A stretch of DNA of 64,000 nt from Gammaproteobacteria bacterium (GTDB taxonomy: Bacteria; Pseudomonadota; Gammaproteobacteria; CAJXQU01). Location: the NCBI GenBank assembly GCA_965238175.1, contig CBDEGZ010000003.1, positions 1,792,001-1,856,000 on the forward strand. Direction: 5' to 3'. Below the pieces are notes generated by a model that saw nothing but the letters and a program-made list of their open reading frames with translations, was not told where the DNA came from and made no database searches. The position numbers and the translations under genes were made by a program. Positions 4,394 to 20,680 of the stretch are shown piece after piece. Each line of letters begins with the position of its first letter. The stretch's first letter is position 1.

Positions 4394-4804
4394 ATGAAGA
4401 AAGCCATCGTTTTGCTTATGTCGATGATCGTATTCCACTCTACTGTACTTCTCGCCGAGGAGAACATTGAAATCGAGTTAAATAAACTGGAGGACAGAGA
4501 CGATAGTTGTCGTGCTTATCTGGTCTTCAAGAATCAAACCACTTCACAGTTTAATGAGTTTAAGCTTGATCTGGTGATGTTTGGTGCTGATGGCATTATT
4601 AGTCGCCGTCTTGCGGTTGACTCATCGCCATTAAGATCAAATAAAACCAGCGTTAAATTATTCGATATTGATGGGCTTTCTTGTGCGGGTATTAGCCTGA
4701 TTTTGATCAATGATGTCTTGAGCTGTCGCGATGAGTATGAACGCAATGATTGTGTGGATTTGATCGATGCCACCTCAAAAGGGAATGTCTCTTTTGTGAA
4801 ATAA
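4394..4804 (+). CDS. Exported Cys-containing protein associated with ExbBD-TonB clusters
   Basis: Signal peptide, ELNKLE...CR...LDLVMF...KTSVKLFD...C...NDVLSC pattern with 4 Cys; first gene of the exbB operon. Confidence 0.65.
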   Translation: MKKAIVLLMSMIVFHSTVLLAEENIEIELNKLEDRDDSCRAYLVFKNQTTSQFNEFKLDLVMFGADGIISRRLAVDSSPLRSNKTSVKLFDIDGLSCAGISLILINDVLSCRDEYERNDCVDLIDATSKGNVSFVK

Positions 4805-4851
4805 CAAATAGCTTTCGTGCAAGGGTCTCATAATAATTATAGGAAAGCAGT

Positions 4852-5508
4852 ATGAACGCCACACTGGAAAGAGCTTCATTTTTATTAGATGCGGGCGGCA
4901 TTGTCCTCATCATACTATTGATTCTATCGGTCATTGCCTTAGCCATTGTTTTATTAAAGTTCTGGCAGTTCCGGCAATTTCATTTAAATGATCAAAGCTT
5001 TATTCAACACACGCTCGATTATTGGCGCGCGGGACAAGCCAATGCCGCGATGGTTGAGTTGTTTAGAGCTTTTCACCCAGCGGCGCGGGTGATGGAAATT
5101 GCCATCAGAGGTATTGCTGAGCGACGCGTTGGTGAGGAGACAATTCGTGAAGAAGTGACGCGTGAAGGGGTAGAGCAAGTTGAGGAACTACGATCACATC
5201 TACGTAGCCTTGAAGTTATCGCTAGCATAAGTCCACTGTTAGGATTACTTGGTACCGTTATGGGAATGATCAATGCCTTCCAACAAATGGAAATTGCCGG
5301 TACTCAAGTTAGTCCGTCGATTCTTTCCGGTGGTGTATGGGAGGCGCTATTAACCACGGCGGTAGGGCTAGCGATAGCGATCCCCGTTGTAGTGGTGTTG
5401 AACTGGTTTGAGCGACAGGTCGAGAAGGCAAAACACACGATGGAAGACACCGTTACTCGTATATTCACTATACAAATGACAACTCTGCCGAACGAAGAGA
5501 AAGCGTGA
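4852..5508 (+). CDS. exbB: MotA/TolQ/ExbB proton channel protein
   Basis: SPLLGLLGTVMGMINAF and EALLTTAVGLAIAIP motifs. Confidence 0.92.
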   Translation: MNATLERASFLLDAGGIVLIILLILSVIALAIVLLKFWQFRQFHLNDQSFIQHTLDYWRAGQANAAMVELFRAFHPAARVMEIAIRGIAERRVGEETIREEVTREGVEQVEELRSHLRSLEVIASISPLLGLLGTVMGMINAFQQMEIAGTQVSPSILSGGVWEALLTTAVGLAIAIPVVVVLNWFERQVEKAKHTMEDTVTRIFTIQMTTLPNEEKA

Positions 5509-5513
5509 TTTAA

Positions 5514-5918
5514 ATGCAGTTTGATTTTTCATCTAATCAAACGCAACAGCCTCGAGCATTAATTGGTTTGACGCCACTGATCGACGTGGTTTTTATTTTA
5601 TTACTTTTTTTCTTACTCGCTTCTAGTTTTCTTGAATGGCATACAATCAAATTATCCACGCCAGCAACGCAAGGAATGGTGGCTAATTCTTCAGGTGGAG
5701 CAGTGTTGATCAGGCTTGGGTCAAATGGCGTACTTGATATTAATGGTCGTCCGGTGCTTATCGATGAATTGCCAAGTAAACTGATTCAATTTCTGGATAA
5801 AAAACCCGATCAAAAAATTCTTATTCGGCCAGCCAAAGGTGTTCCTTTGCAACCGGTAGTTAGTGTCCTTGATGCGGTGAAAAAAGCTGGCGGACAAAAT
5901 GTCTCTTTGACACGTTAG
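5514..5918 (+). CDS. exbD: ExbD/TolR family protein
   Basis: LTPLIDVVFILLLFF TM with the conserved Asp. Confidence 0.9.
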   Translation: MQFDFSSNQTQQPRALIGLTPLIDVVFILLLFFLLASSFLEWHTIKLSTPATQGMVANSSGGAVLIRLGSNGVLDINGRPVLIDELPSKLIQFLDKKPDQKILIRPAKGVPLQPVVSVLDAVKKAGGQNVSLTR

Positions 5919-5927
5919 GAAGCAATC

Positions 5928-6332
5928 ATGAAATTTCCTCAAACAGAAAAAAAACGACAATTAATTGATCCGATTCTACCGCTGATCAATGTCGTGTTCT
6001 TACTTTTGATTTTCGTCATGATGATGTCGCGGGTTGAAGGCACAGATGGTTATGAGGTTGAACCACCTGTTTCTAGCAGTGAAGATCCTGCGGGTACTCA
6101 AGAGCGCATTCTGGTTTTGACAGAGGAGGGCGGTGTATTGCTCAATGGTATTGAAGCCACTGAAAGTAAACTATTGAAGTTCGCGCAAGATCAAAAACGA
6201 GATGCACCTAATCAAATCGTAAAAATTAAAGCAGATGCCGATGTTGGCGCAATGAAACTGATTTCACTGATGGAAAATTTGCGTATTGGTGGCATTGAGA
6301 ACCTGGTCTTGTTAACCGAGAAAAGAAATTAA
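5928..6332 (+). CDS. exbD: ExbD/TolR family protein (Asn variant)
   Basis: ILPLINVVFLLLIF TM (Asp replaced by Asn) and IKADA motif. Confidence 0.88.
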   Translation: MKFPQTEKKRQLIDPILPLINVVFLLLIFVMMMSRVEGTDGYEVEPPVSSSEDPAGTQERILVLTEEGGVLLNGIEATESKLLKFAQDQKRDAPNQIVKIKADADVGAMKLISLMENLRIGGIENLVLLTEKRN

Positions 6333-6337
6333 ATTCG

Positions 6338-7588
6338 GTGTTGGGTATGTTAACAGCGGGACGCTCATCTAGAAACTCTACTAATTCTGCTATTATCAAT
6401 AGCCGTTTTATTGAGAGTAATAATACGGGGCAAATTCTTGCAGTTACTGTTCTTTCCGTTTTATTACATTCCGGAATTATTTTCTGGTTTGCTTCTCAAT
6501 CACCGGAATTTCCCGCTGTCGAGTTTAGCGAATTCAAAGTTGGTCTTGTCAGCTCTGAAGGCGTAGGTGAAATCTTGCAGGCAAACTTACCCGATATTGT
6601 TGCAGCATCTGAAGTAGTGACGGAAGAATCCGGCATTGTCGCACTGCAAGATGAGCTTGTGAGTGATGTTATTAGAGAACAGGCTATTGTTGAAGAGATA
6701 GAGCATGCTTTGACTCCAGTACAAAGTACGCTGACAGAAAACATAGAAATCGTCACGGCCATCACCGCTGAAGCAGCTAGTGTTGCCGATGTGTCTTTGC
6801 CCGAGATCAAAAATGTAGAATTAGCCTTAAGCAATGAAATTGAAGAATCGCGTCCAATCGAGATAGTTGAGACCGTTGTACCTTCTGCAAGCTCAAGTGA
6901 AGATGTGATTGAAACTGCCGGCATTTCTGACGAGGTTGAGAATGTTGCTCCGGTTAATGATTTTTTTAAGCCAGCAGAGATATTGGCCGAAGGTGATCCA
7001 ATTACATCTTTACCGATCGAACATCTAGTGGCAGTACCAGCACCCATAGCAATTCAAGCAAATAATAATCCTACTCAAGCTTCCAATGATGTTGAAATTC
7101 TGGAAATCAAAGCACGTGATGTGATCGTTGTTAAACCGGAATCAGGCAATGAAGCTTCGCCAGCAAAACGAGTAGCAGTCATAACACGAGGTGATGACTC
7201 ATCACGACCTCGACAAAGTCCTGCAGAAAATCTGGGTTCTGATGATTCTGATCGAAAACCATTGGTGAAAGAAATCGAACCACCTAAACCTGTGATCATT
7301 CCTAAAACGTATGTTTTGGAATTAAAAAATTGGCTTGGGCAATATAAAAAATATCCAGTAAATGCTTATCGGTTAAAACAGGAAGGCGTTGCGATTGTGG
7401 GAATTGTGATCAATCGAAGTGGCGATATTATTTCTTATGATATTCGACGCAGCTCTGGACACAAAGCATTGGATTTGGAAGTGGAAAATATGATCAAACG
7501 TGCTAAAAAAATGCCGGCACTGCCTGCTGATTTTCCTAGAGAACAATTGGAGTTATTGATTCCGATCCGTTTTAAAGTTAAGGGTTGA
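6338..7588 (+). CDS. tonB: TonB family energy transducer with long acidic linker
   Basis: TM with SxxxH (SVLLH), long Glu/Val-rich linker, C-terminal YPVNA...QEG...SSGHKALD...IPIRF. The exact start is uncertain. Confidence 0.85.
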   Translation: MLGMLTAGRSSRNSTNSAIINSRFIESNNTGQILAVTVLSVLLHSGIIFWFASQSPEFPAVEFSEFKVGLVSSEGVGEILQANLPDIVAASEVVTEESGIVALQDELVSDVIREQAIVEEIEHALTPVQSTLTENIEIVTAITAEAASVADVSLPEIKNVELALSNEIEESRPIEIVETVVPSASSSEDVIETAGISDEVENVAPVNDFFKPAEILAEGDPITSLPIEHLVAVPAPIAIQANNNPTQASNDVEILEIKARDVIVVKPESGNEASPAKRVAVITRGDDSSRPRQSPAENLGSDDSDRKPLVKEIEPPKPVIIPKTYVLELKNWLGQYKKYPVNAYRLKQEGVAIVGIVINRSGDIISYDIRRSSGHKALDLEVENMIKRAKKMPALPADFPREQLELLIPIRFKVKG

Positions 7589-7694
7589 TTATCAAGAGCT
7601 TTTTTTCGTTTAGCAGAATATAAAATAGTAGCTGTTTAAATCAAAAAGGTCTTTAATCTTTCGTTATAAAAACTCCGACTACACATTCTTTTAT

Positions 7695-8001
7695 GTGAAG
7701 CATTTTACTATTTTAATAATGGCAGCTCTAGCAGTTCCAGTTTGTTTAATATTCTATGGTTCTTGGATTTATCAGTTTTATGAAAAGCCAGTTATAAGCT
7801 TTTGTGATTCATTACAAGAGGGCGGAATACAAGCGTGCAATCACAGGATCTGCGAATGTTAAAAATGCTTCGCTCAATAAATTTTCATCAGGAAGCAACT
7901 TGGTTCAACTACGCAGCAACACTTTTCTTCTCGGCTGTATTTGTTTTATGAAATTCAAAAATGGAAAGCTTGCAAAGGCATATTTAAGAGAAGCAGACTA
8001 A
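7695..8001 (+). pseudogene. Possibly frameshifted small membrane-anchored hypothetical protein
   Basis: GTG at 7695 opens VKHFTILIMAALAVPVCLIFYGSWIYQFYEKPVISFCDSLQEG (TM anchor). An overlapping frame continues AEYKRAI...CICFMKFKNGKLAKAYLREAD to 8001, with the switch near 7820. Confidence 0.35.
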
Positions 8002-8057
8002 AATAAAGAAGTGAATTATGTTGAAGAAAATGATCAATAATCTTAGAAAGTACCCAT

Positions 8058-8927
8058 TTAACGAATCTCTTCAACCCTCACAAAAATATGATTCTGTTCG
8101 TTACCAGATCGACGTGTCTGATACATTCCAGAATTATTTTTATTATGGTATTCCTCAGTCACACCACCGAGTTCAATCCATTGTCCGAGTTTTCCTGAGA
8201 GTGTTGTCTCGGCTTGTTGAGTTTCAACGTGACTAACTCCAGAAGAAGAATTTAATCGTGATTTTTCTGGTGAGATAAACAAGGTCACATTATCACCAGA
8301 CAGATTCGGTACAACATAAAACCCTGAAGTAATATCGCGGTAATTTACCGAGTCGTAAACATCGGTTCCGTATGGATGTAAAACAACGGTTCTTTCATGA
8401 GTCGGTATCGCTTTGCCAGTTTGTATCCAGGCGGGCTGACCTTCGACAGTACGGACAAAATAGACATTGTCATCGTCAAATTGTGATCGGGTACTATTAC
8501 TTCGGTATCTGATCTCACCATGTTTGTTGCGTGCGGATATAACTGTTCCATCGTTGTAATCTGAACCTGGGTTTTGAGTTTCGATGCGAACATTGCCAGA
8601 ATCATAATAACCACCAACACTGTGCTCGCGATTTTGATGCGTTGCTTGGGAATCGTAACGGACACTTATTTTTAGTGAACGCAGAGGGCGATCAATAACA
8701 TCTAACGTTTTGATCAGATCTCGCATATTTTGATCGGTAGTACGAATAATCAATTGATCGTTCATACCTGAAACGCTACCACCTTCTACAAGGAGTGGTT
8801 GTAATATCGGCACAATATCACTCACTAGACGGTGTTTAAGTGGAATAATTTCCAGTGACATTTGCTCTGCATTTGCAGAGAGAATAATCATGAGGTTAAT
8901 TACAAATACAGTCAGGAATTTTTTCAT
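8058..8927 (-). CDS. Short secretin-like protein (secretin N-terminal/NolW-like domain)
   Basis: Signal peptide, then LEIIPLKHRLVSDIVPILQPLL...NDQLIIR...LDVIDRP, followed by a beta-rich C-terminus (GFYVVP, GQWIELGG). Confidence 0.7.
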   Translation of the reverse strand: MKKFLTVFVINLMIILSANAEQMSLEIIPLKHRLVSDIVPILQPLLVEGGSVSGMNDQLIIRTTDQNMRDLIKTLDVIDRPLRSLKISVRYDSQATHQNREHSVGGYYDSGNVRIETQNPGSDYNDGTVISARNKHGEIRYRSNSTRSQFDDDNVYFVRTVEGQPAWIQTGKAIPTHERTVVLHPYGTDVYDSVNYRDITSGFYVVPNLSGDNVTLFISPEKSRLNSSSGVSHVETQQAETTLSGKLGQWIELGGVTEEYHNKNNSGMYQTRRSGNEQNHIFVRVEEIR

Positions 8928-11649: not shown

Positions 11650-12330
11650 ATGGTCGAAGCAAATATTATTCAATGCCACAACGTTAACAAAGTTGTATCA
11701 ACAGCGGAAGGTCAACTAATCATTCTGGATGACATCTCATTTGGTATTTCAAAAGGTGAAACTGTCGCGATTGTTGGTCAGTCAGGTTCAGGTAAAACAA
11801 CATTGCTCAGTTTGCTTGCTGGTTTGGACCTGCCGACCACCGGTAGCGTTCGGTTATTCGATAAGAAGCTGGAATCGCTGGATGAAGATGCTCGGGCTGA
11901 GTTAAGAAATCAGTCTATCGGTTTTGTCTTCCAGGCGTTTCACTTGCTGCCCGGTTTTACCGCACTTGAGAATGTGATGGTGCCGATCGAAATTCAGGAC
12001 GATATCAATCCACAAGAGCGGGCAACGCAGTTATTAAAAGAAGTCGGTATGCAGCATCGTCTCGATCATTTTCCTACGACACTGTCTGGTGGCGAACAAC
12101 AACGGGTTGCGATTGCACGCGCTTTTGCTACTCAGCCACCGATGCTTCTTGCAGATGAACCTACCGGGAATCTTGATGCAGAAACTGGCCAGACGATTAT
12201 CGATTTGTTGTTTAAGTTGAATGCTGAGCAAGGCACGACATTGATCCTGGTTACGCATGATGAAGTACTTGCCTCCCGATGTTCTAGGCGTTTCAGGTTA
12301 GATAAAGGTCAATTGCAGGTTATTGAATGA
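11650..12330 (+). CDS. ybbA: ABC transporter ATP-binding protein (YbbA-like)
   Basis: GQSGSGKT, LSGGEQQR and LLADEPTGNLD motifs. Confidence 0.9.
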   Translation: MVEANIIQCHNVNKVVSTAEGQLIILDDISFGISKGETVAIVGQSGSGKTTLLSLLAGLDLPTTGSVRLFDKKLESLDEDARAELRNQSIGFVFQAFHLLPGFTALENVMVPIEIQDDINPQERATQLLKEVGMQHRLDHFPTTLSGGEQQRVAIARAFATQPPMLLADEPTGNLDAETGQTIIDLLFKLNAEQGTTLILVTHDEVLASRCSRRFRLDKGQLQVIE

Positions 12331-14825
12331 TCTCGACATTCTATTTGCGATTGATCAAGCGTCAGTGGCGTTTGGGGGCAGTACGATTATTCTGTTTGGC
12401 TGTCGCCATTGCCGTGGCAGTGACATTCAGTATTAATTTATTAAGTGATCGCCTGGAGCAATTATTTAACCAGCAAGCCAAAGAAGTGTTGGCTGCAGAT
12501 CAGGTTTTAGAGTCAACGACAGTATTAACATCTAGCCAAAAATTATTTCTAAATTCTTCAACGATAGAAAAGGCCGAAACGGTTGTTTTTCCAACCATGG
12601 CCAGCGCTGAAGATGAATTCTTACTGGTTAATCTGAAGGCTGTTTCAGAAGAATATCCATTACGAGGACAGTTGCGAATAGCCGATGCTTTGTTTGAAGA
12701 TCCTGTCCCGATCAAAACCGGACCTGAAGCAGGTAAAGCTTGGGTAGAAGATCGCGTACTTAATACATTGAATATCACGATAGGAGATCAACTCACTATC
12801 GGCGATCAGAAATTTGATGTAGAAAAAGTGCTCGTATATGAACCTGATCGAGGTGGTAGTTTTTACAGCTTCACACCGCGAGTGATGATGCATTTAGATG
12901 ATCTTGAAGCGACTGGTGTTATCCAACCGGCTAGTCGAGTGAAATACTATTATTTAATGGCTGGTAATGCTGAACTCCTTCAACAACTGCGTGATCAACT
13001 AACGTCTGAATTGCAAGCAAACCAACGTTTCTTGACCATAGATGACACTAATGCCACGTTAGCGACTACATTAGAGCGAGCATTTAGATTTTTATCTATT
13101 ACTGCGTTGATAGCTGTCTTGCTGGGAGCCGTTGGTGTGGCCTTGGTCAGCTATCAATATGCGCGTGAAATGACGCAGCCTTACGCCATTTTACGTTGCC
13201 TGGGTTTGCATGGAAAACGTCTAAAAATTTCAGTGATCTTGCCTTTGTCGATTTACACACTGGCAGCAATCCTATTTGGATTATTGATCGGATATGGCGC
13301 ACATTTATTGTTGTTGAACAGTCTAGGAGGTTTGTTACCTGATAATTTACCTGGCGCAACAATCAATCCGCTACTTATCTCCTGCTTAATGGCGTTAATT
13401 GTTGTGATCAGTTTTGCCTGGCCGTTTATCTCACAACTGCTGACAACATTGCCGAAGCAATTATTACATGCTGCAGAAGTGCAGCCTTTTCCTATTGTGC
13501 GAGCCTCAATGGGTATGTTGATAGGGATTCTGATTCTGGTGCAAATTGCCACACAAGAGTGGCGCTTAAGTTTTGGTGTCATCGGTGGAATGGCTGTTTT
13601 TGTCGCTCTAGCTTATGGCTTGACTCAGTGGATTATTAATCTATTAGTTAAGCATCGACAACGAAAGGGCAATGCTTATGCGAAGCTTGGCGCAAGGATG
13701 CTCAGTGCAAATCGGCGTATGGCGAGTTTGCAAATTATTGCGATTGGGATCACCTTCTTTGGTCTCGCACTGATCCAGACTCTGCGTGATGATCTACTTA
13801 CTACCTGGCAATCAAAAGTCCCGGAAAATGCACCAAATGTATTTGCGATGAATTTATTTGAAAGTGATAAAGAAGCCTTTCAGTCATTGTTGAAAAAAGA
13901 GCAGATTACGCATAGTCCTTTTTACCCGATTGTGCGTGGTCGCTTGACTGAAATCAATCAACAAGGCGTGCAGCGACGCGTGAGCAAAGAAGAAAGGGGA
14001 AATCGTGTGACAGAACGTGATCTGGCTTTAACGTTTAGCCAGGATTTACCCAAAGATAATTTGATCATAGAAGGCAGCTGGCATGCGCCGGTTAAAGAAA
14101 AAGATTCGCGATCTACCGTGCCTGTTTCAGTTGAAGCAAAATTAGCCGAACGTTTAGAAATAAAATTGGGTGACAGATTAGATTTCACTATTGCAACGCA
14201 ACGTTTGTCTGCTGTTGTTACCAGTCTTAGATCAGTCGAATGGGAATCTTTTACACCTAATTTTTATATGATGTTTCCACCAGGTGCTCTGGAAGGATTA
14301 CCTGTCACTTATTTAGCCAGTGTGCATCTGGAACGAGAACGAAGATCATTAATGGCTGACTGGATAAAGCAATTTCCTAACGTAGCATTTTTCGATGTGG
14401 ATTATCTACTAAAAAGAATACAAGGGATCACTCAACAGCTGAGTTTGGCCTTGCAAACCATTCTCTATTTTTCGTTGATTGCGAGCCTGGTTATTTTTAT
14501 TTCGATTGAATTAATCCTTTATCATTACCGAAGTTATAGCACCGCAATCTACAAAGCTTTAGGTGCAAAGACCAGCCTGATCCAGAAAATGTTTCGTTCA
14601 CAATTTATTCTGATCGGGTTGATCGCTGGTGGCATTGCTTATGGTCTTAACCTAATAACCAGTTTTCTTCTGAGTAAATATTTTATAGAAGGGGAAACGC
14701 AGATTAATATAAGCACGATTATTCTTTGTTTAGTGATCATACCATTGTTGGTTTTGATCGCGGGAATGATTTCTATTCAAAGAACGAAATCAGTATCGGC
14801 TAAGGAGTTGCTTGTTTCGGAGTGA
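12327..14825 (+). CDS. ybbP: ABC transporter FtsX-like permease (YbbP-like)
   Basis: 832 aa with YPLRG, APNVF, YPIVRGRL and WESFTPNF motifs; coupled to ybbA. Confidence 0.88.
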   Translation: MISTFYLRLIKRQWRLGAVRLFCLAVAIAVAVTFSINLLSDRLEQLFNQQAKEVLAADQVLESTTVLTSSQKLFLNSSTIEKAETVVFPTMASAEDEFLLVNLKAVSEEYPLRGQLRIADALFEDPVPIKTGPEAGKAWVEDRVLNTLNITIGDQLTIGDQKFDVEKVLVYEPDRGGSFYSFTPRVMMHLDDLEATGVIQPASRVKYYYLMAGNAELLQQLRDQLTSELQANQRFLTIDDTNATLATTLERAFRFLSITALIAVLLGAVGVALVSYQYAREMTQPYAILRCLGLHGKRLKISVILPLSIYTLAAILFGLLIGYGAHLLLLNSLGGLLPDNLPGATINPLLISCLMALIVVISFAWPFISQLLTTLPKQLLHAAEVQPFPIVRASMGMLIGILILVQIATQEWRLSFGVIGGMAVFVALAYGLTQWIINLLVKHRQRKGNAYAKLGARMLSANRRMASLQIIAIGITFFGLALIQTLRDDLLTTWQSKVPENAPNVFAMNLFESDKEAFQSLLKKEQITHSPFYPIVRGRLTEINQQGVQRRVSKEERGNRVTERDLALTFSQDLPKDNLIIEGSWHAPVKEKDSRSTVPVSVEAKLAERLEIKLGDRLDFTIATQRLSAVVTSLRSVEWESFTPNFYMMFPPGALEGLPVTYLASVHLERERRSLMADWIKQFPNVAFFDVDYLLKRIQGITQQLSLALQTILYFSLIASLVIFISIELILYHYRSYSTAIYKALGAKTSLIQKMFRSQFILIGLIAGGIAYGLNLITSFLLSKYFIEGETQINISTIILCLVIIPLLVLIAGMISIQRTKSVSAKELLVSE

Positions 14826-14832: not shown

Positions 14833-15543
14833 TTATTTGGGTTTTTTCGCGATCAAATTAATCAGTGTTTCTTCACGTTCCAATGGTGGTTTGATACCGA
14901 ACCAGTTTTCTAGAATTGCGAAGTCTTCACGACTCCACCATAAAAATGGATAGGATATCTGATCTTCCGATATTTCAAACCCTGCATCTTTGATAAGTTG
15001 TATATATTCACTAGCAGTTTTTTGTACACTCATGGGATGTCGGAATAAAAGCCGAATAACCCATGAATGAATATAGCGTTTGGTGGATTCAGCAAAGAGT
15101 AATACACCACCGGGTTTTAAGATTCTAAAATATTCCTTCATTGCTTCGGTTTGGTAAATCAAATGGTGAAAAGTCTGATGACAGAAAAGCATATCGACTG
15201 AACTATCCTCGAGTTGAATCATTGAGCTGGAGCATCGTACATAGGTTACGTTGTCCAGCCCATTTAGTTTGGCCTCTTGGGCGCAAGCGGTTAATATTTC
15301 CTTATCTATATCGATCGCGATTAATTTTTCTGGATTAAACCGTTTATTCAGTTTTTTTAATGAACGCCCATAACCACAACCCACATCGGCAATGACTGGG
15401 TAGTTTGGATTGTCTTTCATCAGCAAACGTGAAAGGTCTTTTAAAGCAACTTCGATCACCTGATCTGTCCAGGTTTTACTGCGTAAAAACCATTTTCCAA
15501 ATGTTGATTCCGGTACGTGTGCTTCAGCTAATACATTATTCAT
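14833..15543 (-). CDS. Class I SAM-dependent methyltransferase
   Basis: IADVGCGYG motif I, SSVDMLFCHQTFHH and RILKPGG. Confidence 0.88.
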   Translation of the reverse strand: MNNVLAEAHVPESTFGKWFLRSKTWTDQVIEVALKDLSRLLMKDNPNYPVIADVGCGYGRSLKKLNKRFNPEKLIAIDIDKEILTACAQEAKLNGLDNVTYVRCSSSMIQLEDSSVDMLFCHQTFHHLIYQTEAMKEYFRILKPGGVLLFAESTKRYIHSWVIRLLFRHPMSVQKTASEYIQLIKDAGFEISEDQISYPFLWWSREDFAILENWFGIKPPLEREETLINLIAKKPK

Positions 15544-15674
15544 TCGTTGTTTATTATTCTATCCATAAAGTTTCTTGAGCTTCATGGGAAACATGAGCTG
15601 CTAAAAAAGTAGGCTATCATATTTTTATCTGGCTTAATCTGCAAATGGTCTTGAATTGGTTGTTAGTTTTACGT

Positions 15675-15873
15675 GGGATTGTTTATAGCCTTAATCTCTT
15701 AACCAGTTTTCTACTGAGTAAATATTTTATAGAGGGGGAAACGCAGATTAATATAACCACGATTGCTCTCTGTCTGGCGATCACACCATTGTTGGTTTTG
15801 ATCGCGGGAATGATTTCTTCTCAAAGAACTAAATCAGTATCGGCTAAGGAATTGCTTGTTTCGGAATGAACTG
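15675..15873 (+). pseudogene. Copy 2: orphan duplicate of the ybbP 3' end
   Basis: Encodes ...SFLLSKYFIEGETQINI...QRTKSVSAKELLVSE, the same C-terminus as YbbP; about 89% nt identity. Confidence 0.9.
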
Positions 15874-15961: not shown

Positions 15962-17089
15962 TTAACTCAATAATCCTTCCAAAATCCTCTCATAAATCTC
16001 AGTCAACTTATCCAAATCGTCAACAGCAACGCATTCATTCACTTTATGGATTGTGGCATTCAAAGGACCGAGTTCGACAACTTGAGCACCGGTGGGGGCG
16101 ATGAAGCGTCCGTCGGATGTACCGCCAGCGGTGGAGAGTTTTGTTTCATAACCCATGACATTTTTGATCGCAGATTGAGTGGCTTCGACTAGTTTTCCAG
16201 CAGGTGTGAGGAAAGCTTGGCCGGAGCAACGCCATGTGATCTCATAATCCAGTTTATGTTTGTCCAGAATTGTGCACAGTCGTTGTTTTAGTTGATCAAT
16301 AGTCACTTCTGTACAAAACCTAAAGTTACACATAACAAATGCATCTCCGGGAATGACATTTTCAACACCCGTGCCAGATTGTATATTTGAGATTTGGAAG
16401 GAGGTTGGTGGATAAAATTCATTACCATCATCCCAGATTTCTTGCTCTAATTCCCGTAGGGCTGGGAGCATTTCATGTACCGGGTTTTTTGCCAGATGCG
16501 GATAAGCAACATGGCCTTGAATTCCCTTGAAGGTAATATCTGCACTGAGTGATCCGCGGCGGCCATTTTTGACGACATCGGCGAGTTTTTGATCGCTGGA
16601 GGGTTCTCCAACCAGGCACCAGGTGATCTTTTCGTTTCGAGCTTCCAGTGTTTCTATGACTTTGACGGTTCCTTCTGTCGCAACACCTTCTTCATCGCTG
16701 GTGATCAAAAAAGCGATAGATCCCTCTGGTTTAGGATTGTTTTTTAAGAATTGATCTACAGCTATGACCATCGCTGCAATGCTACTTTTCATATCTGCTG
16801 CACCGCGTGCGTAGAGCATCCCATCTTCAATGGTGGGTTCAAATGGATCAAATTTCCACGCTTCAACTGGGCCGGTTGGGACAACATCTGTATGACCTGC
16901 GAAAGCAAAAACTGGCGCTTCTGTTCCAAAACGTGCCCAGAGGTTATCAACCTTTCCAAAGCGCAGATGTTCGCATTTAAAGCCAAGCGCTGTCAGGCGT
17001 TCTGCGAGCATTTGTTGGCAGCCGTCGTCTTCAGGCGTTAGTGATTGACGACGGAGTAAATCAAGCGTGAGATCTAGTGTTTCGTTCAT
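15962..17089 (-). CDS. dapE: Succinyl-diaminopimelate desuccinylase
   Basis: [28 protein letters not shown] and GGTSDGRF motifs. Confidence 0.97.
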
Positions 17090-17161
17090 GGTTACCTCAA
17101 TAGATACGGATTTTTATTAATGTGTTTCTAATTAACCGACAACAAGTAATAGGTGAGAAAT

Positions 17162-18052
17162 TTACTCATCTTTCTCATCAATAATATTTGCAAAAGCGAG
17201 CAATATTCCTAAATTATTATTATTCATTCCTTCTATTAAAGTTGAAATTGGTAATGTAATTGAGTGACCATTGTCTTTGTTATTAAAGGTGATTGTTTTA
17301 CCCTCTTGCTCAATCGTAAAGAAGGATGGGACATCACGATTTAGTTTTTCAAGAAGCTTTTCTAATAAGGAGTCCTTCTTAAGTTTTTTTGCTATTAACT
17401 TAGCAATTTCTGTCGGTGTGTATGAGTTGGCATCTATATAACCAATAGTAGTGGTTATTCCTGGGATCTCAGTATCATCGATTCGAATCGGCAAGATATA
17501 CTCGCTCTGTTCCTCAAAAGCTCTCGCTTGAGCAGATTTGCGTTCATGGTTAGTCCATAGCTTTTCTTTATAGTGGTTCGAAAGGAACATCACACAATAC
17601 TTGGATTTCACTCGATAAACTTCATCAAGATGTGTATATAGATCTTTGCCCCATAGTGTATGTGTTTCATATGAGTCGTAAAAAACCTCAATATCATATG
17701 CTTTTAGTATTCCGACGATTTCAATAACGAGTTCACGATCCTCACCTGCAAATGATAAGGCAACATCATAATCAAAGACTTTTGGAGTGGGTGGTTTAGA
17801 TTGATTGACTATTTGTGTATGTAAATTTTGAAAATTCTCCCAAGTGATCTCTTCAGAAAAATTTATTTTATATTTTTTATTTTCCAATGCGGTGAGAATG
17901 TTTGTTACTACCCATTTTTTGCTTATGTACGTAGTAACTGAGCTTTTTGCCCATCCCGTACAATTTACAATATCCTCAGTATTTACAATCTTTCCATTAT
18001 TCTCTTTCAGAAATTCGTAGGCTAATCTGACTTTATCCCATTTTGTACTCAT
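17162..18052 (-). CDS. TIR domain protein with N-terminal putative winged-helix domain
   Basis: YDVALSFAGEDR...EVFYD...WG...CVMFLS.HY..KLWTNHE...YILPIRIDD is a bacterial TIR domain with the catalytic Glu. The N-terminal ~80 aa (AYEFLK...EDIVNCTGWAKSSVTTYISKKW) look HTH-like. Confidence 0.85.
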   Translation of the reverse strand: MSTKWDKVRLAYEFLKENNGKIVNTEDIVNCTGWAKSSVTTYISKKWVVTNILTALENKKYKINFSEEITWENFQNLHTQIVNQSKPPTPKVFDYDVALSFAGEDRELVIEIVGILKAYDIEVFYDSYETHTLWGKDLYTHLDEVYRVKSKYCVMFLSNHYKEKLWTNHERKSAQARAFEEQSEYILPIRIDDTEIPGITTTIGYIDANSYTPTEIAKLIAKKLKKDSLLEKLLEKLNRDVPSFFTIEQEGKTITFNNKDNGHSITLPISTLIEGMNNNNLGILLAFANIIDEKDE

Positions 18053-18056
18053 ACAA

Positions 18057-18548
18057 CTATCGAATAGTCTGATTAATCCATCTTACGAAGTCTGAAATAT
18101 TCATCAACTGAACCTTGTTAATCTTATCTGCGGGGATGTACTTGTTTGTTTCGCAGGCTTTTCTAAGCCACTCAATAGCCCCATCTTTTGCTCCACCACC
18201 ATCTATGATTATAAACACATTTTCTTCAGGCATCTGCTCAATACAGTTCAGATAAACGTATGGAAATTTTTCATCGACTGAACCTTTCGATTGTTGCCAT
18301 TTGCATTCAATTCTTACTTCAAAGGAATAGTGTTCTGATTTTAATACAAACTCGCTTTTACTGTTATGACCATAAATACTATCGTAAGGGACATTTTTCA
18401 ATAACAGTTCACTACCGTATTTGGTTGGGTTTTTTATATATTCTCTGTAAGGGACGCAAGTGAAGCCTTTATTTGAAAGTGAGTCCTCAATGATCCGTTC
18501 GAGGGTCTTTCCTGCTTCAACTGCAAGTCCGCCCTGGCTAGTTGTCAT
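18057..18548 (-). CDS. PD-(D/E)XK superfamily nuclease (putative restriction endonuclease)
   Basis: GKTLE helix Glu, SEFVL, IECKWQQSKGSVDEK (ExK plus Q..GS.DEK motif), IIIDGGG; adjacent to dam. Confidence 0.78.
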   Translation of the reverse strand: MTTSQGGLAVEAGKTLERIIEDSLSNKGFTCVPYREYIKNPTKYGSELLLKNVPYDSIYGHNSKSEFVLKSEHYSFEVRIECKWQQSKGSVDEKFPYVYLNCIEQMPEENVFIIIDGGGAKDGAIEWLRKACETNKYIPADKINKVQLMNISDFVRWINQTIR

Positions 18549-18554
18549 AATTTA

Positions 18555-19373
18555 CTAATCTCCACGATCAAAAACAGCGATCAGTTCATCTGCTTTTTTA
18601 CGATTATTCTTATCTTGGCTGATATAGCGCTGTACTTGGAAAGTTGTGATTTTTGCCTCTTTGTATAATTCCCTTATCTCTGGTGTATTGTGGTTTGAGA
18701 TTACGACGCGGATCCCTCTGGAGGCCAGTTTTATTGCTGACTTAGCAAGATCTTCCTGTTTGTCCCAACCAAAACCACCAGTGCTGTAATCGGTGAAGCT
18801 TGCTGTTTTACTAAGCGGCGTATAGGGAGGATCACAATACACAACGTCTATATTTTTACGGGCTTTTTTCATCGTTGTCAGGAAATCAGCCGAAATGAAT
18901 TCCGCATGTTTACTTTTATCTACAAAAGCTTTCATGGCTTGTTCGGGAAATAGGGGGGTTTTATAGCGTCCAAAAGGGCTGTTGAATCCTCCACTTCCGT
19001 TATATCGACAAAGGCCGTTATAGCAATGTCTATTCAGATAGATAAATAAAGCAGCTTTCAGACGTATATCATTACTTTTATTAAAGACCGCACGAAAACT
19101 GTAGTATGCATCAGCAGTATTGCATTCGGGTTGAAAAAAACTGCGTGCGTATTCAATAAAATTATCGCTATCTTGGCATAAAATTTTATACAAATTGATC
19201 AGATCAGAATTGTTATCTGCCAGGATATATTTCTTGTAGGGTGCGTTAAGAAAAACTGCACCAGAACCTAAAAAAGGTTCAATGAGACGTTTTCCTGGCC
19301 CCAATTCATTACATATCCTTTCTATGAGACGGTATTTACCGCCAGGCCATTTTAGAAATGGTTTTGATGACAT
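18555..19373 (-). CDS. dam: Dam-family N6-adenine DNA methyltransferase (predicted GATC)
   Basis: LKWPGGK, EPFLGSG, YLNRHCYNGLCRYN..GGFNSPFGRY (Dam GATC-recognition hairpin) and YCDPPY. Confidence 0.93.
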   Translation of the reverse strand: MSSKPFLKWPGGKYRLIERICNELGPGKRLIEPFLGSGAVFLNAPYKKYILADNNSDLINLYKILCQDSDNFIEYARSFFQPECNTADAYYSFRAVFNKSNDIRLKAALFIYLNRHCYNGLCRYNGSGGFNSPFGRYKTPLFPEQAMKAFVDKSKHAEFISADFLTTMKKARKNIDVVYCDPPYTPLSKTASFTDYSTGGFGWDKQEDLAKSAIKLASRGIRVVISNHNTPEIRELYKEAKITTFQVQRYISQDKNNRKKADELIAVFDRGD

Positions 19374-19645
19374 TATTTTTGTTCTTCTGGGGTTTTAGCC
19401 TTGATACTGAGTGCGTGAATATCGGTTTGCATAAGATCGGTGACTGCTTCGTAGATCATTTTATGCCTTTTGATCAATGATTGACCGGAGAACTGATCAG
19501 AAACAATCAGTACATTAAAATGGCCTTTGCCATCTTTTGCACCAGCGTGGCCAGCATGTAGATGACTTTCATCAATGATGTCTAGTTGATCTGGTGTGAA
19601 AGCAGATTCCAACTTTTCCCGGATCATCTCAACCCGTTCACTCAT
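19373..19645 (-). CDS. bolA: BolA family protein
   Basis: DESHLHAGH, GHF, KRHKMIY and IHALSI motifs. Confidence 0.93.
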   Translation of the reverse strand: MSERVEMIREKLESAFTPDQLDIIDESHLHAGHAGAKDGKGHFNVLIVSDQFSGQSLIKRHKMIYEAVTDLMQTDIHALSIKAKTPEEQK

Positions 19646-19944
19646 TATAGGTCTACTTTTTTAAATGGCTTAACGGTTACTTTTTGATAGACACCGGCTT
19701 TAAGGTAAGGATCTGCATCTGCCCATGTTTGAGCATCTGCAAGTGAATCGAACTGCGCGACGATCAAACTACCGGTAAAACCTGCTTTGCCGGGATCTTC
19801 ACTATCTATAGCAGGGTGGGGGCCAACCAATAAAACGCGCTCTTCTTCATTAAGCTTTTTCAGGCGTTCGATATGCGCAGGGCGAGTTTTCATACGAAGC
19901 TCAAGGCTGTTTTCGATATCTTCACTGATAATGGCGTAATACAT
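19645..19944 (-). CDS. yciI: YciI family protein
   Basis: RPAH, GPHPAIDSEDPG..GFTGSL and ADPY motifs. Confidence 0.93.
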   Translation of the reverse strand: MYYAIISEDIENSLELRMKTRPAHIERLKKLNEEERVLLVGPHPAIDSEDPGKAGFTGSLIVAQFDSLADAQTWADADPYLKAGVYQKVTVKPFKKVDL

Positions 19945-19948
19945 TTTT

Positions 19949-20530
19949 CTATTCCTCGTTTGAATCTTTACTTGCTACTGTTTCAGGTTCTTCTTGAATA
20001 TAACGTGATAAGTACACGGCTTGAGCGATGACAAATGCGATGGTCAGACCAAGAATTCCGAACAGTTTGAAGTTGACCCAGGTTTCTGTCTCGTAATTAA
20101 ATGCGACGTAAAGGTTTGCGCAACCGGAGAGGAAGAAAAATACCACCCATGCAAAGTTCAATTTCCTCCAAACGTGTTCTGGTAGTTCAACTTGTTCACC
20201 CATCATTCTTTTAATGATGGTTTTTTCTCCAAAGAATTGGCTACCTAGAAAAACGGCTGCGAAAAGCCAGTTAACGACTGTTGGTTTCCATTTGATAAAT
20301 CTTTCGTCTTGGAAAATGAGGGTTGCCCCACCAAGGACGACAATTAATCCCATGGTGATCAAATGCATTTTTTCGACTTTGCGATGCTTTAACCAGGAGT
20401 AGCTGACTTGCGCGATAGAAGCAATTATGGCAATGACGGTTGCCAGCATGATCCCATCTTGTGGATCTTCAGGGATCTTAAATGCGATAAAAAATAGCAG
20501 GATAGGTAAAAAGTCGAAAAGAAATTTCAT
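19949..20530 (-). CDS. yciB: Inner membrane septation protein YciB/IspZ
   Basis: FDFLPILLFF, FIKWKPT and WVNFKLFG motifs. Confidence 0.95.
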   Translation of the reverse strand: MKFLFDFLPILLFFIAFKIPEDPQDGIMLATVIAIIASIAQVSYSWLKHRKVEKMHLITMGLIVVLGGATLIFQDERFIKWKPTVVNWLFAAVFLGSQFFGEKTIIKRMMGEQVELPEHVWRKLNFAWVVFFFLSGCANLYVAFNYETETWVNFKLFGILGLTIAFVIAQAVYLSRYIQEEPETVASKDSNEE

Positions 20531-20680
20531 AGAGATATTTGAAGCCAGTTTTATAGAGAATTATTAGTGCGCTGATTCTAGCGGAATTTATTTAAATTCA
20601 CTATCTATGTGGATTAAATCATTTGTTAAGTACTCAGTACAAAGCTATAAATAAGAATAATTATTAATTGCAAACGCAAA

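Follow-up and report, generated by a model that had tools for sequence, protein, structure and literature searches.

Introduction

In restriction-modification (R-M) systems of the DpnII/MboI type, which act at GATC, the gene for a D12 methyltransferase lies directly upstream of a gene for a small restriction-type nuclease, and the pair moves horizontally. The DpnII system uses both D12 and N6_N4 enzymes. Other R-M loci harbor an embedded toxic effector gene, as is the case of PrrC in EcoprrI and of RloC. A PrrC-like suicide back-up role was proposed in silico in 2013 for proteins found in R-M operons that combine a winged helix-turn-helix (wHTH) domain with a HEPN domain and, in some versions, a restriction endonuclease domain (Anantharaman et al., PMC3710099). 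In this work, we analyzed a locus within a 64,000-nucleotide (nt) stretch of a Gammaproteobacteria genome (the window; assembly GCA_965238175.1, contig CBDEGZ010000003.1, positions 1,792,001 to 1,856,000), where three adjacent genes code for a Dam-family DNA methyltransferase, a PD-(D/E)XK nuclease of family PF20472, and a protein composed of a wHTH domain, a TIR domain, and a small C-terminal domain. Coordinates without a locus label are positions in the window, G000 is the window's own genome, and G002 is that of a sister species.

The locus resembles the DpnII/MboI-type systems in that a D12 methyltransferase gene is directly upstream of that of a small restriction-type nuclease and in that other PF20472 loci have an N6_N4-class partner (compare DpnM and DpnA). 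However, the nuclease belongs to PF20472 rather than to the DpnII family and has no close solved structure, and the methyltransferase is the only close Dam of the cell, encoded in a housekeeping operon of a genome that includes MutH. The putative effector gene is embedded in the R-M locus, 4 nt after the nuclease gene, as are those of PrrC and RloC, but its product lacks an ABC ATPase and a HEPN domain (its only Pfam match is TIR). In addition, the partner is of type II and not of type Ic as in EcoprrI, and the proposed trigger is a state of the DNA and not a phage peptide. The EC042_2821/DUF3644 wHTH-HEPN proteins (PDC-S19) have an N-terminal wHTH of the same family, as judged with a profile that includes the window's copy, and DUF3644 is present at the loci L102, G060, and G276 described below. 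These proteins lie in R-M loci (PMC3710099), and the available passages of that article do not mention a tie between wHTH-HEPN proteins and D12/Dam enzymes or PF20472. The window effector, unlike them, consists of TIR and a C-terminal domain, with no DUF3644 match and no nuclease domain.

The TIR fold with its conserved glutamate is common to AbTir, BtpA/TcpB, ThsB, the SPARTA TIR-APAZ proteins, and PDC-S66, but none of these families includes the wHTH or the C-terminal domain of the window protein. In contrast to Thoeris, no ThsA gene is found among the neighbors of the TIR protein gene (the nuclease gene and dapE), a statement about the locus, since no genome-wide search for ThsA was made. 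The fold match to SPARTA and the short prokaryotic Argonaute (pAgo) systems covers TIR only, and there is no adjacent pAgo or APAZ partner. Finally, of the methylation-associated defenses that use kinases (mad6 of MADS, PglW of Pgl/BREX type 2, and PD-T4-6), mad6 and PD-T4-6 are matched by wHTH-kinase relatives encoded directly after methyltransferase genes. These defenses, however, are multi-gene systems or stand-alone kinases without this wHTH, and the window codes for a TIR domain and not for a kinase.

All parts of the locus are of known kinds, namely Dam, TIR, a PD-(D/E)XK nuclease, and suicide effectors linked to restriction. The repeated presence of wHTH relatives by methyltransferases points to an undescribed coupling of DNA marking to cell-suicide defense. 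An initial annotation of the window, made from the nucleotide sequence, did not recognize the trio as a named system. We did not find the three-gene combination named either, but the novelty is partial, because wHTH-HEPN proteins with a PrrC-like role in R-M operons were proposed in 2013 in the sections of PMC3710099 that deal with them. In the literature we found no description of PF20472 as a regular partner of GATC-type methyltransferases, of a preference of the wHTH for methyltransferase genes, or of a housekeeping, MutH-serving Dam doubling as a modification gene. Versions of the wHTH joined to TIR, kinase, or unknown effector domains were not found either; the supplements of PMC3710099 and of a 2024 preprint on embedded defense may list them.

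Genes and Domains of the Locus

The three genes are co-directional on the minus strand. The first of them, dam (18555..19373), is the presumed modification gene and codes for a 272-amino acid (aa) D12-class N6-adenine DNA methyltransferase (PF02086, 5.6e-63). It is followed by the gene of a 163-aa PD-(D/E)XK nuclease (18057..18548; PF20472, PDDEXK_11, 4.6e-46), a candidate GATC restriction endonuclease, and by the gene of the 296-aa TIR protein (17162..18052; TIR_2, 7.6e-18, residues 97-219). The start of dam overlaps the stop of the preceding gene, bolA, in the sequence TAATG, dam and the nuclease gene are separated by 6 nt, and the nuclease and TIR protein genes by 4 nt. The open reading frames (ORFs) and junctions reported in the initial annotation were confirmed. 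The residues that it had singled out, i.e., the Dam hairpin and DPPY, the E...E...ECK core of the nuclease, and the Glu in the WTNHE motif of TIR, are invariant in the homologue alignments.

By NCBIfam, the product of dam falls in the Dam subfamily (TIGR00571 'dam'; score 283.7 bits, cut-off 114.85) but below the threshold for an equivalog of the E. coli type (NF008152; score 334 bits, cut-off 441). DPPY and the residues of the NGLCR..N..FG hairpin, which we take to be the element that reads GATC, are invariant in 34 Dam sequences. There is one close Dam in the genome, and the sole other D12 gene (L002, G000:C3:2114051-2114803) is 29% identical. The nuclease alignment showed E66, E81, C82, K83, and GSVDEK to be invariant in 27 homologues. 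The trio was compared with catalogued systems, a check that the initial annotation had proposed. In PADLOC, dam was matched by methyltransferase models and the third protein in its TIR part only, and the nuclease had no match.

The Nuclease and Its Methyltransferase Partners

When one genome of each of 185,579 species was scanned, 430 loci with a relative of the nuclease were identified, and the gene neighborhoods of the best 80 were compared. An adenine methyltransferase gene belonging to one of three families adjoins the nuclease gene in 77 of these 80 loci. The most common arrangement, present in 64, has a D12 Dam-family gene directly upstream and on the same strand (this number takes in one fragment at a contig start and two genes with split matches), and one more locus has a D12 gene in convergent orientation downstream. 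A PF01555 N6_N4 methyltransferase gene occupies the position directly upstream in 10 loci, seven of them Pfam-tested and three assigned because they are 78% identical to a tested one. The remaining two have a PF05869 Dam gene directly downstream. A single nuclease family is combined here with three unrelated adenine methyltransferase families, as in isospecific type II systems. Enzymes of the D12 'Dam' and PF05869 'Dam' kinds are typically GATC-specific.

These linkages gave solid backing to the view, already present in the initial annotation, that dam and the nuclease gene constitute an R-M pair. On this evidence, we infer GATC specificity and cleavage, and we think it probable that both genes form a GATC R-M pair. 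For the PF20472 nuclease, the most likely identity is that of a GATC restriction enzyme missing from the catalogues. The family has 401 matches, and its identity of 45-60% across phyla is what would be expected if a restriction gene were spreading horizontally. Its members are found in Chloroflexota, Bacillota, Cyanobacteria, Campylobacterota, Legionella, and an archaeon, and a plasmid collection included one plasmid with the nuclease.

Several results weigh against the assignment as a restriction enzyme. Three of the 80 loci have no adjacent methyltransferase gene, none of the PADLOC or NCBIfam restriction models matches the nuclease, and a search of the PDB sequences with the nuclease profile had a best E of 0.46. 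The structural model, predicted with high confidence (predicted local distance difference test, pLDDT, 88.5), found in Foldseek weak matches to generic PD-(D/E)XK nucleases (E >= 0.012). Moreover, the family is more conserved (mean column identity 69%) than restriction enzymes tend to be. Such unusually strong conservation between phyla, together with the lack of a restriction-enzyme model or a close structure match, would fit a Dam-associated repair or housekeeping nuclease, e.g., one that nicks hemimethylated sites, next to an unrelated TIR gene. The location within a housekeeping operon, between bolA/dam and dapE, in three gammaproteobacterial lineages also favors such a role. Besides the window's lineage, L063 and G021 (= L083), from other gammaproteobacterial lineages, have the order yciI-bolA-dam-nuclease-dapE in the same slot without a TIR gene. 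However, a MutH gene is already present in the window's genome, and the nuclease was found in none of the six congeners searched, five of which keep dam at the bolA-dapE slot, and in one of 54 other families sampled in the class. Furthermore, the nuclease has partners from three unrelated methyltransferase families, a trait of isospecific restriction enzymes, and its patchy distribution from Archaea to Cyanobacteria fits a mobile restriction gene. A housekeeping function is for these reasons improbable, and a GATC restriction enzyme is the assignment that we prefer.

At a related locus, L084 (from a Psychromonas metagenome-assembled genome), where the partner of the nuclease is a PF05869 Dam, a dapE homologue is encoded on the other strand some 1.3 kb away, and two small ORFs occupy the interval.

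The wHTH-TIR Protein and Its Relatives

The initial annotation had described an N-terminal HTH-like domain and a small C-terminal domain in the third protein, and both were seen in the AlphaFold model (mean pLDDT 82). The N-terminal 80 residues have the winged-helix order helix-strand-helix-helix-strand-strand (helices 5-17, 25-32, and 36-47; strands 22-24, 53-55, and 60-63; pLDDT 85-96). The wHTH domain (residues 1-85; 17798..18052, minus strand), the proposed sensor module, is followed by the TIR domain (residues ~93-222; 17387..17776, minus strand), the proposed NAD+-consuming effector, which includes the invariant E170. The C-terminal domain (residues ~225-296; 17162..17380, minus strand) is conserved with TIR. 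In the model it is a confident small alpha/beta structure composed of a helix, three strands, and two helices (residues ~228-287, pLDDT ~94), and it has no Pfam match at E <= 10.

Among 120 listed homologues of the TIR protein, 46 cover at least 87% of its length with 38-76% identity. E170 of WTNHE and many other TIR residues are invariant in 32 full-length homologues, and the N- and C-terminal parts are conserved too. As judged from these alignments, the protein is a member of a conserved family with the order wHTH, TIR, C-terminal domain. There are also relatives of about 200 aa that consist of the TIR and C-terminal domains without the wHTH (61-72% of the query covered). In a Foldseek search, the TIR domain matched BtpA/TcpB, AbTir, PdTIR, and SPARTA TIR-APAZ with E values between 4e-6 and 1e-3. 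The PADLOC match was to PDC-S66 (1.5e-18; TIR part only, profile positions 121-240 of 282), and those to ThsB (2.5e-7 and 3.1e-4) were far weaker. The third protein is the sole TIR_2 match in the window's genome. Plasmid and phage collections had matches at the level of the TIR domain only, with no full-length relative.

No Pfam family reached threshold with the wHTH, for which only weak wHTH-type matches were obtained. A PDB sequence search with its profile had a best E of 0.094, a word-indexed protein search with residues 1-90 returned two matches, and protein atlas look-ups with the wHTH produced no usable match. A profile was built from 12 copies of the domain, including the window's own, and it identified (E <= 0.001) 564 cluster representatives among 1.84 billion. 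Fusions were then scored in 71 listed proteins, after 79 listed proteins shorter than 190 aa, which may be stand-alone domains or fragments, were dropped. The partners, which are domains of toxic effectors, were DUF3644 (16), Schlafen AlbA_2 (12), TIR_2 (10), protein kinase (7), AAA_21 (4), RES (1), and an AHJR-like nuclease (1). DUF3644 is a HEPN domain according to the part of PMC3710099 that treats it. PADLOC recognized the kinase versions as PD-T4-6 and mad6 and the DUF3644 versions as PDC-S19, and every match begins after the wHTH. The module is rare, with occurrences in seven out of 400 genomes from the class (the window's being one of the seven), in one of a phylum sample of 401 (the window's only), and in two of seven genomes in the order to which G209 belongs.

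Some wHTH proteins have other compositions. A C-terminal domain of about 190 aa follows the wHTH in proteins encoded at L205:7518-8321 (G209) and at L208:8385-9242 and L209:2900-3730 (G045, unpublished). These domains share 39-43% identity, have the motifs GYSIxHVxGRF and DETTA, and have no match in Pfam, PADLOC, or the atlas, where the G209 domain was looked up. The gene at L206:8256-8516 (G053) codes for an 86-aa stand-alone wHTH in a prophage-like region. It lies after two large genes (4674-6512 and 6767-8224) that were taken for those of the terminase and the portal protein by size and order alone. Many of the 564 profile matches are 60-130 aa long, and such short proteins might act as regulators, or as decoys of the sensor domain made by phages.

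Linkage of the wHTH to Methyltransferase Genes

The genetic context of the wHTH could be read at 12 loci, a small sample, and a DNA methyltransferase gene adjoins the wHTH gene in eight of them. Two of the eight are from G045, an unpublished genome whose loci can be published only with the consent of its depositors, and the proportion is 6/10 without them. The window has dam, the nuclease gene, and the wHTH-TIR gene. In G209 the order is the same, with co-directional genes for a D12 methyltransferase, a PF20472 nuclease, and the wHTH joined to a different effector, the 190-aa domain. At L101, a metagenome contig, genes for a wHTH-TIR protein and a DUF4365 protein are convergent with those of a PF20472 nuclease, a Dam, and a PF05869 Dam. 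At L104-106, three related metagenome contigs, the gene of an N6_N4 methyltransferase overlaps the start of a wHTH-kinase gene, and a wHTH-TIR gene lies beside that of a 423-aa D12 enzyme. G785 has an N6_N4 methyltransferase gene followed by a wHTH-kinase gene beside a type I system. At L102, hsdR-hsdM-hsdS are followed by a wHTH-TIR gene that faces a wHTH-DUF3644 gene. In both G045 loci a D12 gene is followed by that of the wHTH-unknown effector, and in one of them a dapE-like gene comes next.

The methyltransferase and wHTH-kinase operon has no nuclease gene in any of its four occurrences (L104:4008-5884, L105:4036-5854, L106:1886-3782, and L212:2818-4683 in G785). The kinase domains of these proteins match mad6 (1.7e-49) and PD-T4-6 (3.1e-47). 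A control was provided by metagenome TIR loci without wHTH, where a D12 gene was found in 0 of 73 (0 of 32 at >= 4 kb), compared with four of seven wHTH-TIR loci. The linkage to methyltransferases follows the wHTH and not the TIR domain. The three loci with dam, nuclease, and wHTH genes (window, L101, and G209) are divergent, with 45-62% identity in the nuclease, 42-51% in Dam, and 28-44% in the wHTH, and therefore they do not represent one recent cassette.

Taken as a tie of the TIR protein to the R-M pair, the initial annotation was correct in part. The wHTH is found by methyltransferases in 8/12 loci and the order recurs in G209, in L101, and probably in a sequencing run described below (X3). 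The initial annotation, however, took a failure of the TIR gene to co-occur with dam and the nuclease gene as evidence against its reading, and this is in part what was observed. Of the best 80 nuclease loci, none has a TIR homologue (tblastn) or a wHTH domain (profile search), so that the link runs in one direction only. The effector is thus an occasional add-on, dispensable for the pair, and not a fixed third component. This absence counts against a functional coupling, as does the lack of an adjacent methyltransferase gene in four of the 12 wHTH loci (by a catalytic-motif pattern search). These four are G060 and G276, where wHTH-DUF3644 proteins have a weak nuclease-domain match; G010, with a broken wHTH copy; and G053, where the stand-alone wHTH in the prophage is 5 kb from a ParB-methyltransferase gene. 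The sample is also weakened by the relatedness of L104-106 and by the two loci from an unpublished genome, and part of the linkage could be co-location because R-M genes are common in defense islands.

The same data could be accounted for by independent neighbors, namely an R-M pair and a self-contained, single-gene wHTH-TIR defense that responds to a phage cue and hitch-hikes beside methyltransferase genes. Methyltransferase 3' ends or R-M loci could be, for example, favored insertion points for such cassettes. PADLOC lists PDC-S19 (wHTH-DUF3644) and PDC-S66-like TIR proteins as single-gene candidates, and truncated dam-like 3' fragments are present beside the TIR cassette in L101 (L101:52-336) and directly 3' of the nuclease gene in L030 (L030:6494-6661). 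These observations, together with the 0/80 and 4/12 results, speak for independence. On the other hand, the D12 link tracks the wHTH and not TIR, and the operon with the methyltransferase gene followed by the wHTH-kinase gene recurs in L104-106 and in G785. In L104-106 and in G045 the methyltransferase genes have no partner other than the wHTH gene, and a nuclease gene is missing. Furthermore, dam-tail repeats are not a general feature, since a significant copy of the dam tail was found downstream of the nuclease gene in 0/63 nuclease loci, and the 13-nt match in the window was equalled in 60 of 500 shuffles. Independence of the neighbors is a serious alternative that we nonetheless consider rather unlikely. 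The distribution of the wHTH tilts us, by a modest margin, toward a wHTH-TIR protein that is functionally tied to the methyltransferase.

A Proposed Two-Layer Model

The explanation that we put forward has two layers, an R-M pair and a methyltransferase-linked wHTH-TIR effector. As a whole it is a tentative model, reasonable but short of probable. In the first layer, Dam would methylate the host genome and the PF20472 nuclease would cut incoming unmethylated GATC sites. In the second, the third protein would be a methyltransferase-linked abortive-infection effector with the wHTH as its sensor module. The wHTH would bind DNA without the Dam mark, the bound wHTH-TIR copies would cluster, the clustered TIR domains would become active NADases, and the depletion of NAD+ (nicotinamide adenine dinucleotide) would stop the infected cell. 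Assembly is what activates bacterial TIR NADases, and the methylation state of GATC can be read by a winged helix, as in the C-terminal domain of DpnI. The sensing and activation steps of the model draw on these two precedents, and we infer DNA sensing, NADase activity, and any coupling between layers. That the wHTH specifically senses unmethylated DNA, that bound copies cluster, and that the TIR domains act as NADases is a possibility which we advance with more reserve than the tie itself.

A different coupling would be a PrrC-like guard, in which the Dam or nuclease protein holds wHTH-TIR inactive and a phage anti-restriction factor releases the NADase. The three genes are tightly packed, and PMC3710099 put forward an equivalent mechanism for HEPN proteins of R-M operons, among them those of the wHTH-bearing EC042_2821/DUF3644 family. 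The partner methyltransferases are, however, unrelated (D12 of at least three clades, N6_N4, and type I HsdM), and a DNA-level signal is easier to reconcile with this diversity than one protein interface. A winged helix is, in addition, primarily a DNA-binding fold. A guard of this kind is consequently unlikely. A prediction of the complex between Dam and the TIR protein, run without controls, gave no support, and it is not evidence either way.

The model with a DNA-sensing wHTH could be taken further. That the effector itself may take on the 'restriction' part is hinted at most strongly by the pairs of a methyltransferase and a wHTH-effector that have no nuclease. The wHTH might then define a class of R-M-like defense that needs no nuclease, where the methyltransferase marks self, the wHTH reads the absence of the mark, and the suicide effectors are swappable (TIR, HEPN, Schlafen, kinase, RES, or the unknown domain). 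The wHTH reader in the window would share one Dam with a restriction enzyme and MutH. We regard this extension as speculative, and rather doubtful at present. If it were correct, repair, restriction, and abortive infection would all draw on a single methyl mark set by a housekeeping enzyme.

The consequences of the model, if true, would reach beyond this locus. PF20472 would be a widespread, uncatalogued family of restriction enzymes for GATC, the most studied bacterial methylation site, and the wHTH would be a portable sensor through which DNA methylation is connected to six or more kinds of toxic effectors. The PrrC idea would extend from one curiosity to a general design, and the path by which unmarked DNA activates TIR could be tested directly.

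The bolA-dapE Slot and the Divergent Block

Upstream of dam is bolA (19373..19645, minus strand; PF01722, 2.1e-31), a housekeeping gene that marks the left edge of high identity to G002. Downstream of the TIR protein gene is another housekeeping gene, dapE (15962..17089, minus strand; Peptidase_M20, 7.3e-46, and M20_dimer), at the right edge of the block. The stop of the TIR protein gene and the start of dapE are separated by 72 nt. The initial annotation had treated dam as unusual at this place. This was not supported, as the order yciB-yciI-bolA-dam-dapE, with dapE directly after dam and with neither the nuclease nor the TIR gene, is found in all five congeners compared, i.e., this is the native position in the genus. 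Because of this position and of the MutH gene in the genome, the window's Dam is, as far as gene content indicates, also a housekeeping enzyme. SeqA was not found in the window's genome.

The slot is native but the allele is divergent. The amino acid identity between G000 and G002 is 89-95% for YciB, YciI, BolA, and DapE (93% for BolA and 95% for DapE) versus 66% for Dam. The window's Dam shares 63-68% identity with the Dams of the congeners, compared with 69-76% between that of G002 and those of the other congeners. At the nucleotide level, the identity to G002 is 0.86-0.92 across yciB-yciI-bolA (0.89-0.92 in bolA) and then 0.57-0.67 inside dam, a sharp step located exactly at the bolA/dam border. 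A blastn comparison with G002 aligned 15962-17089 at 88.5% and 18571-20548 at 77.7%, with no alignment between them. The GC content is 0.33-0.37 in the TIR and nuclease genes versus 0.42-0.47 in the flanks. In a Dam tree, G000 is within the clade of the genus (support 100/99) on the longest branch, and it is not sister to G002. The divergent block (17090..19373, minus strand) comprises dam, the nuclease gene, the TIR protein gene, and the 72-nt spacer, and it stands in place of the plain dam of the sister species.

Contigs from X3, a public sequencing run of another study, bridge the dam/nuclease, nuclease/TIR, and TIR/dapE junctions. The block pieces are 90-97% identical to the window, and the flanks ~86% (bolA-yciB) and ~89% (dapE side). 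These contigs are short and of low depth, and they hint at a second organism carrying the block at the same locus. Runs X5 and X6 had stray short matches only.

The simplest reading of these comparisons is that the entire dam-nuclease-TIR block took the place of the resident dam through recombination in the flanking sequences, the donor being a member of the genus or close to it. The Dam-nuclease pair and the TIR gene would have arrived as one block by homologous replacement between bolA and dapE, and consequently the same Dam would also serve MutH-dependent mismatch repair. A single chromosomal slot with a plain dam in five species and with dam plus nuclease, with or without the effector, in others can be seen as an evolutionary snapshot, and it bears on the long-standing question of the interconversion of orphan methyltransferases and restriction systems.

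The yciI/bolA-dam-dapE slot is common to several gammaproteobacterial families, with or without the nuclease gene (L182 in G016, L063, and L083/L189 in G021).

Additional Features of the Window

One terminator-like site was found on the minus strand from yciB to dapE, and it is inside yciB; co-transcription of the genes in this interval is therefore plausible. The 13-nt sequence AGATnAGTAAATT is common to the stop regions of the TIR protein gene (17159-17184) and dam (18549-18574), and it was considered as one of a pair of dam-tail repeats bracketing the insert, an interpretation discarded because the match was not significant in the shuffling test mentioned above. The window's TIR protein has five additional C-terminal residues with respect to its closest homologue.

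Beyond dapE, a 74-aa ORF (15645-15869, plus strand) is a near-verbatim copy of the last ~60 residues of an 832-aa FtsX-like permease (12327-14825, plus strand). The two copies of the permease 3' end flank the gene of a 236-aa class I S-adenosylmethionine-dependent methyltransferase (14833-15543, minus strand), an arrangement that looks like an insertion that duplicated the 3' end of the permease gene.

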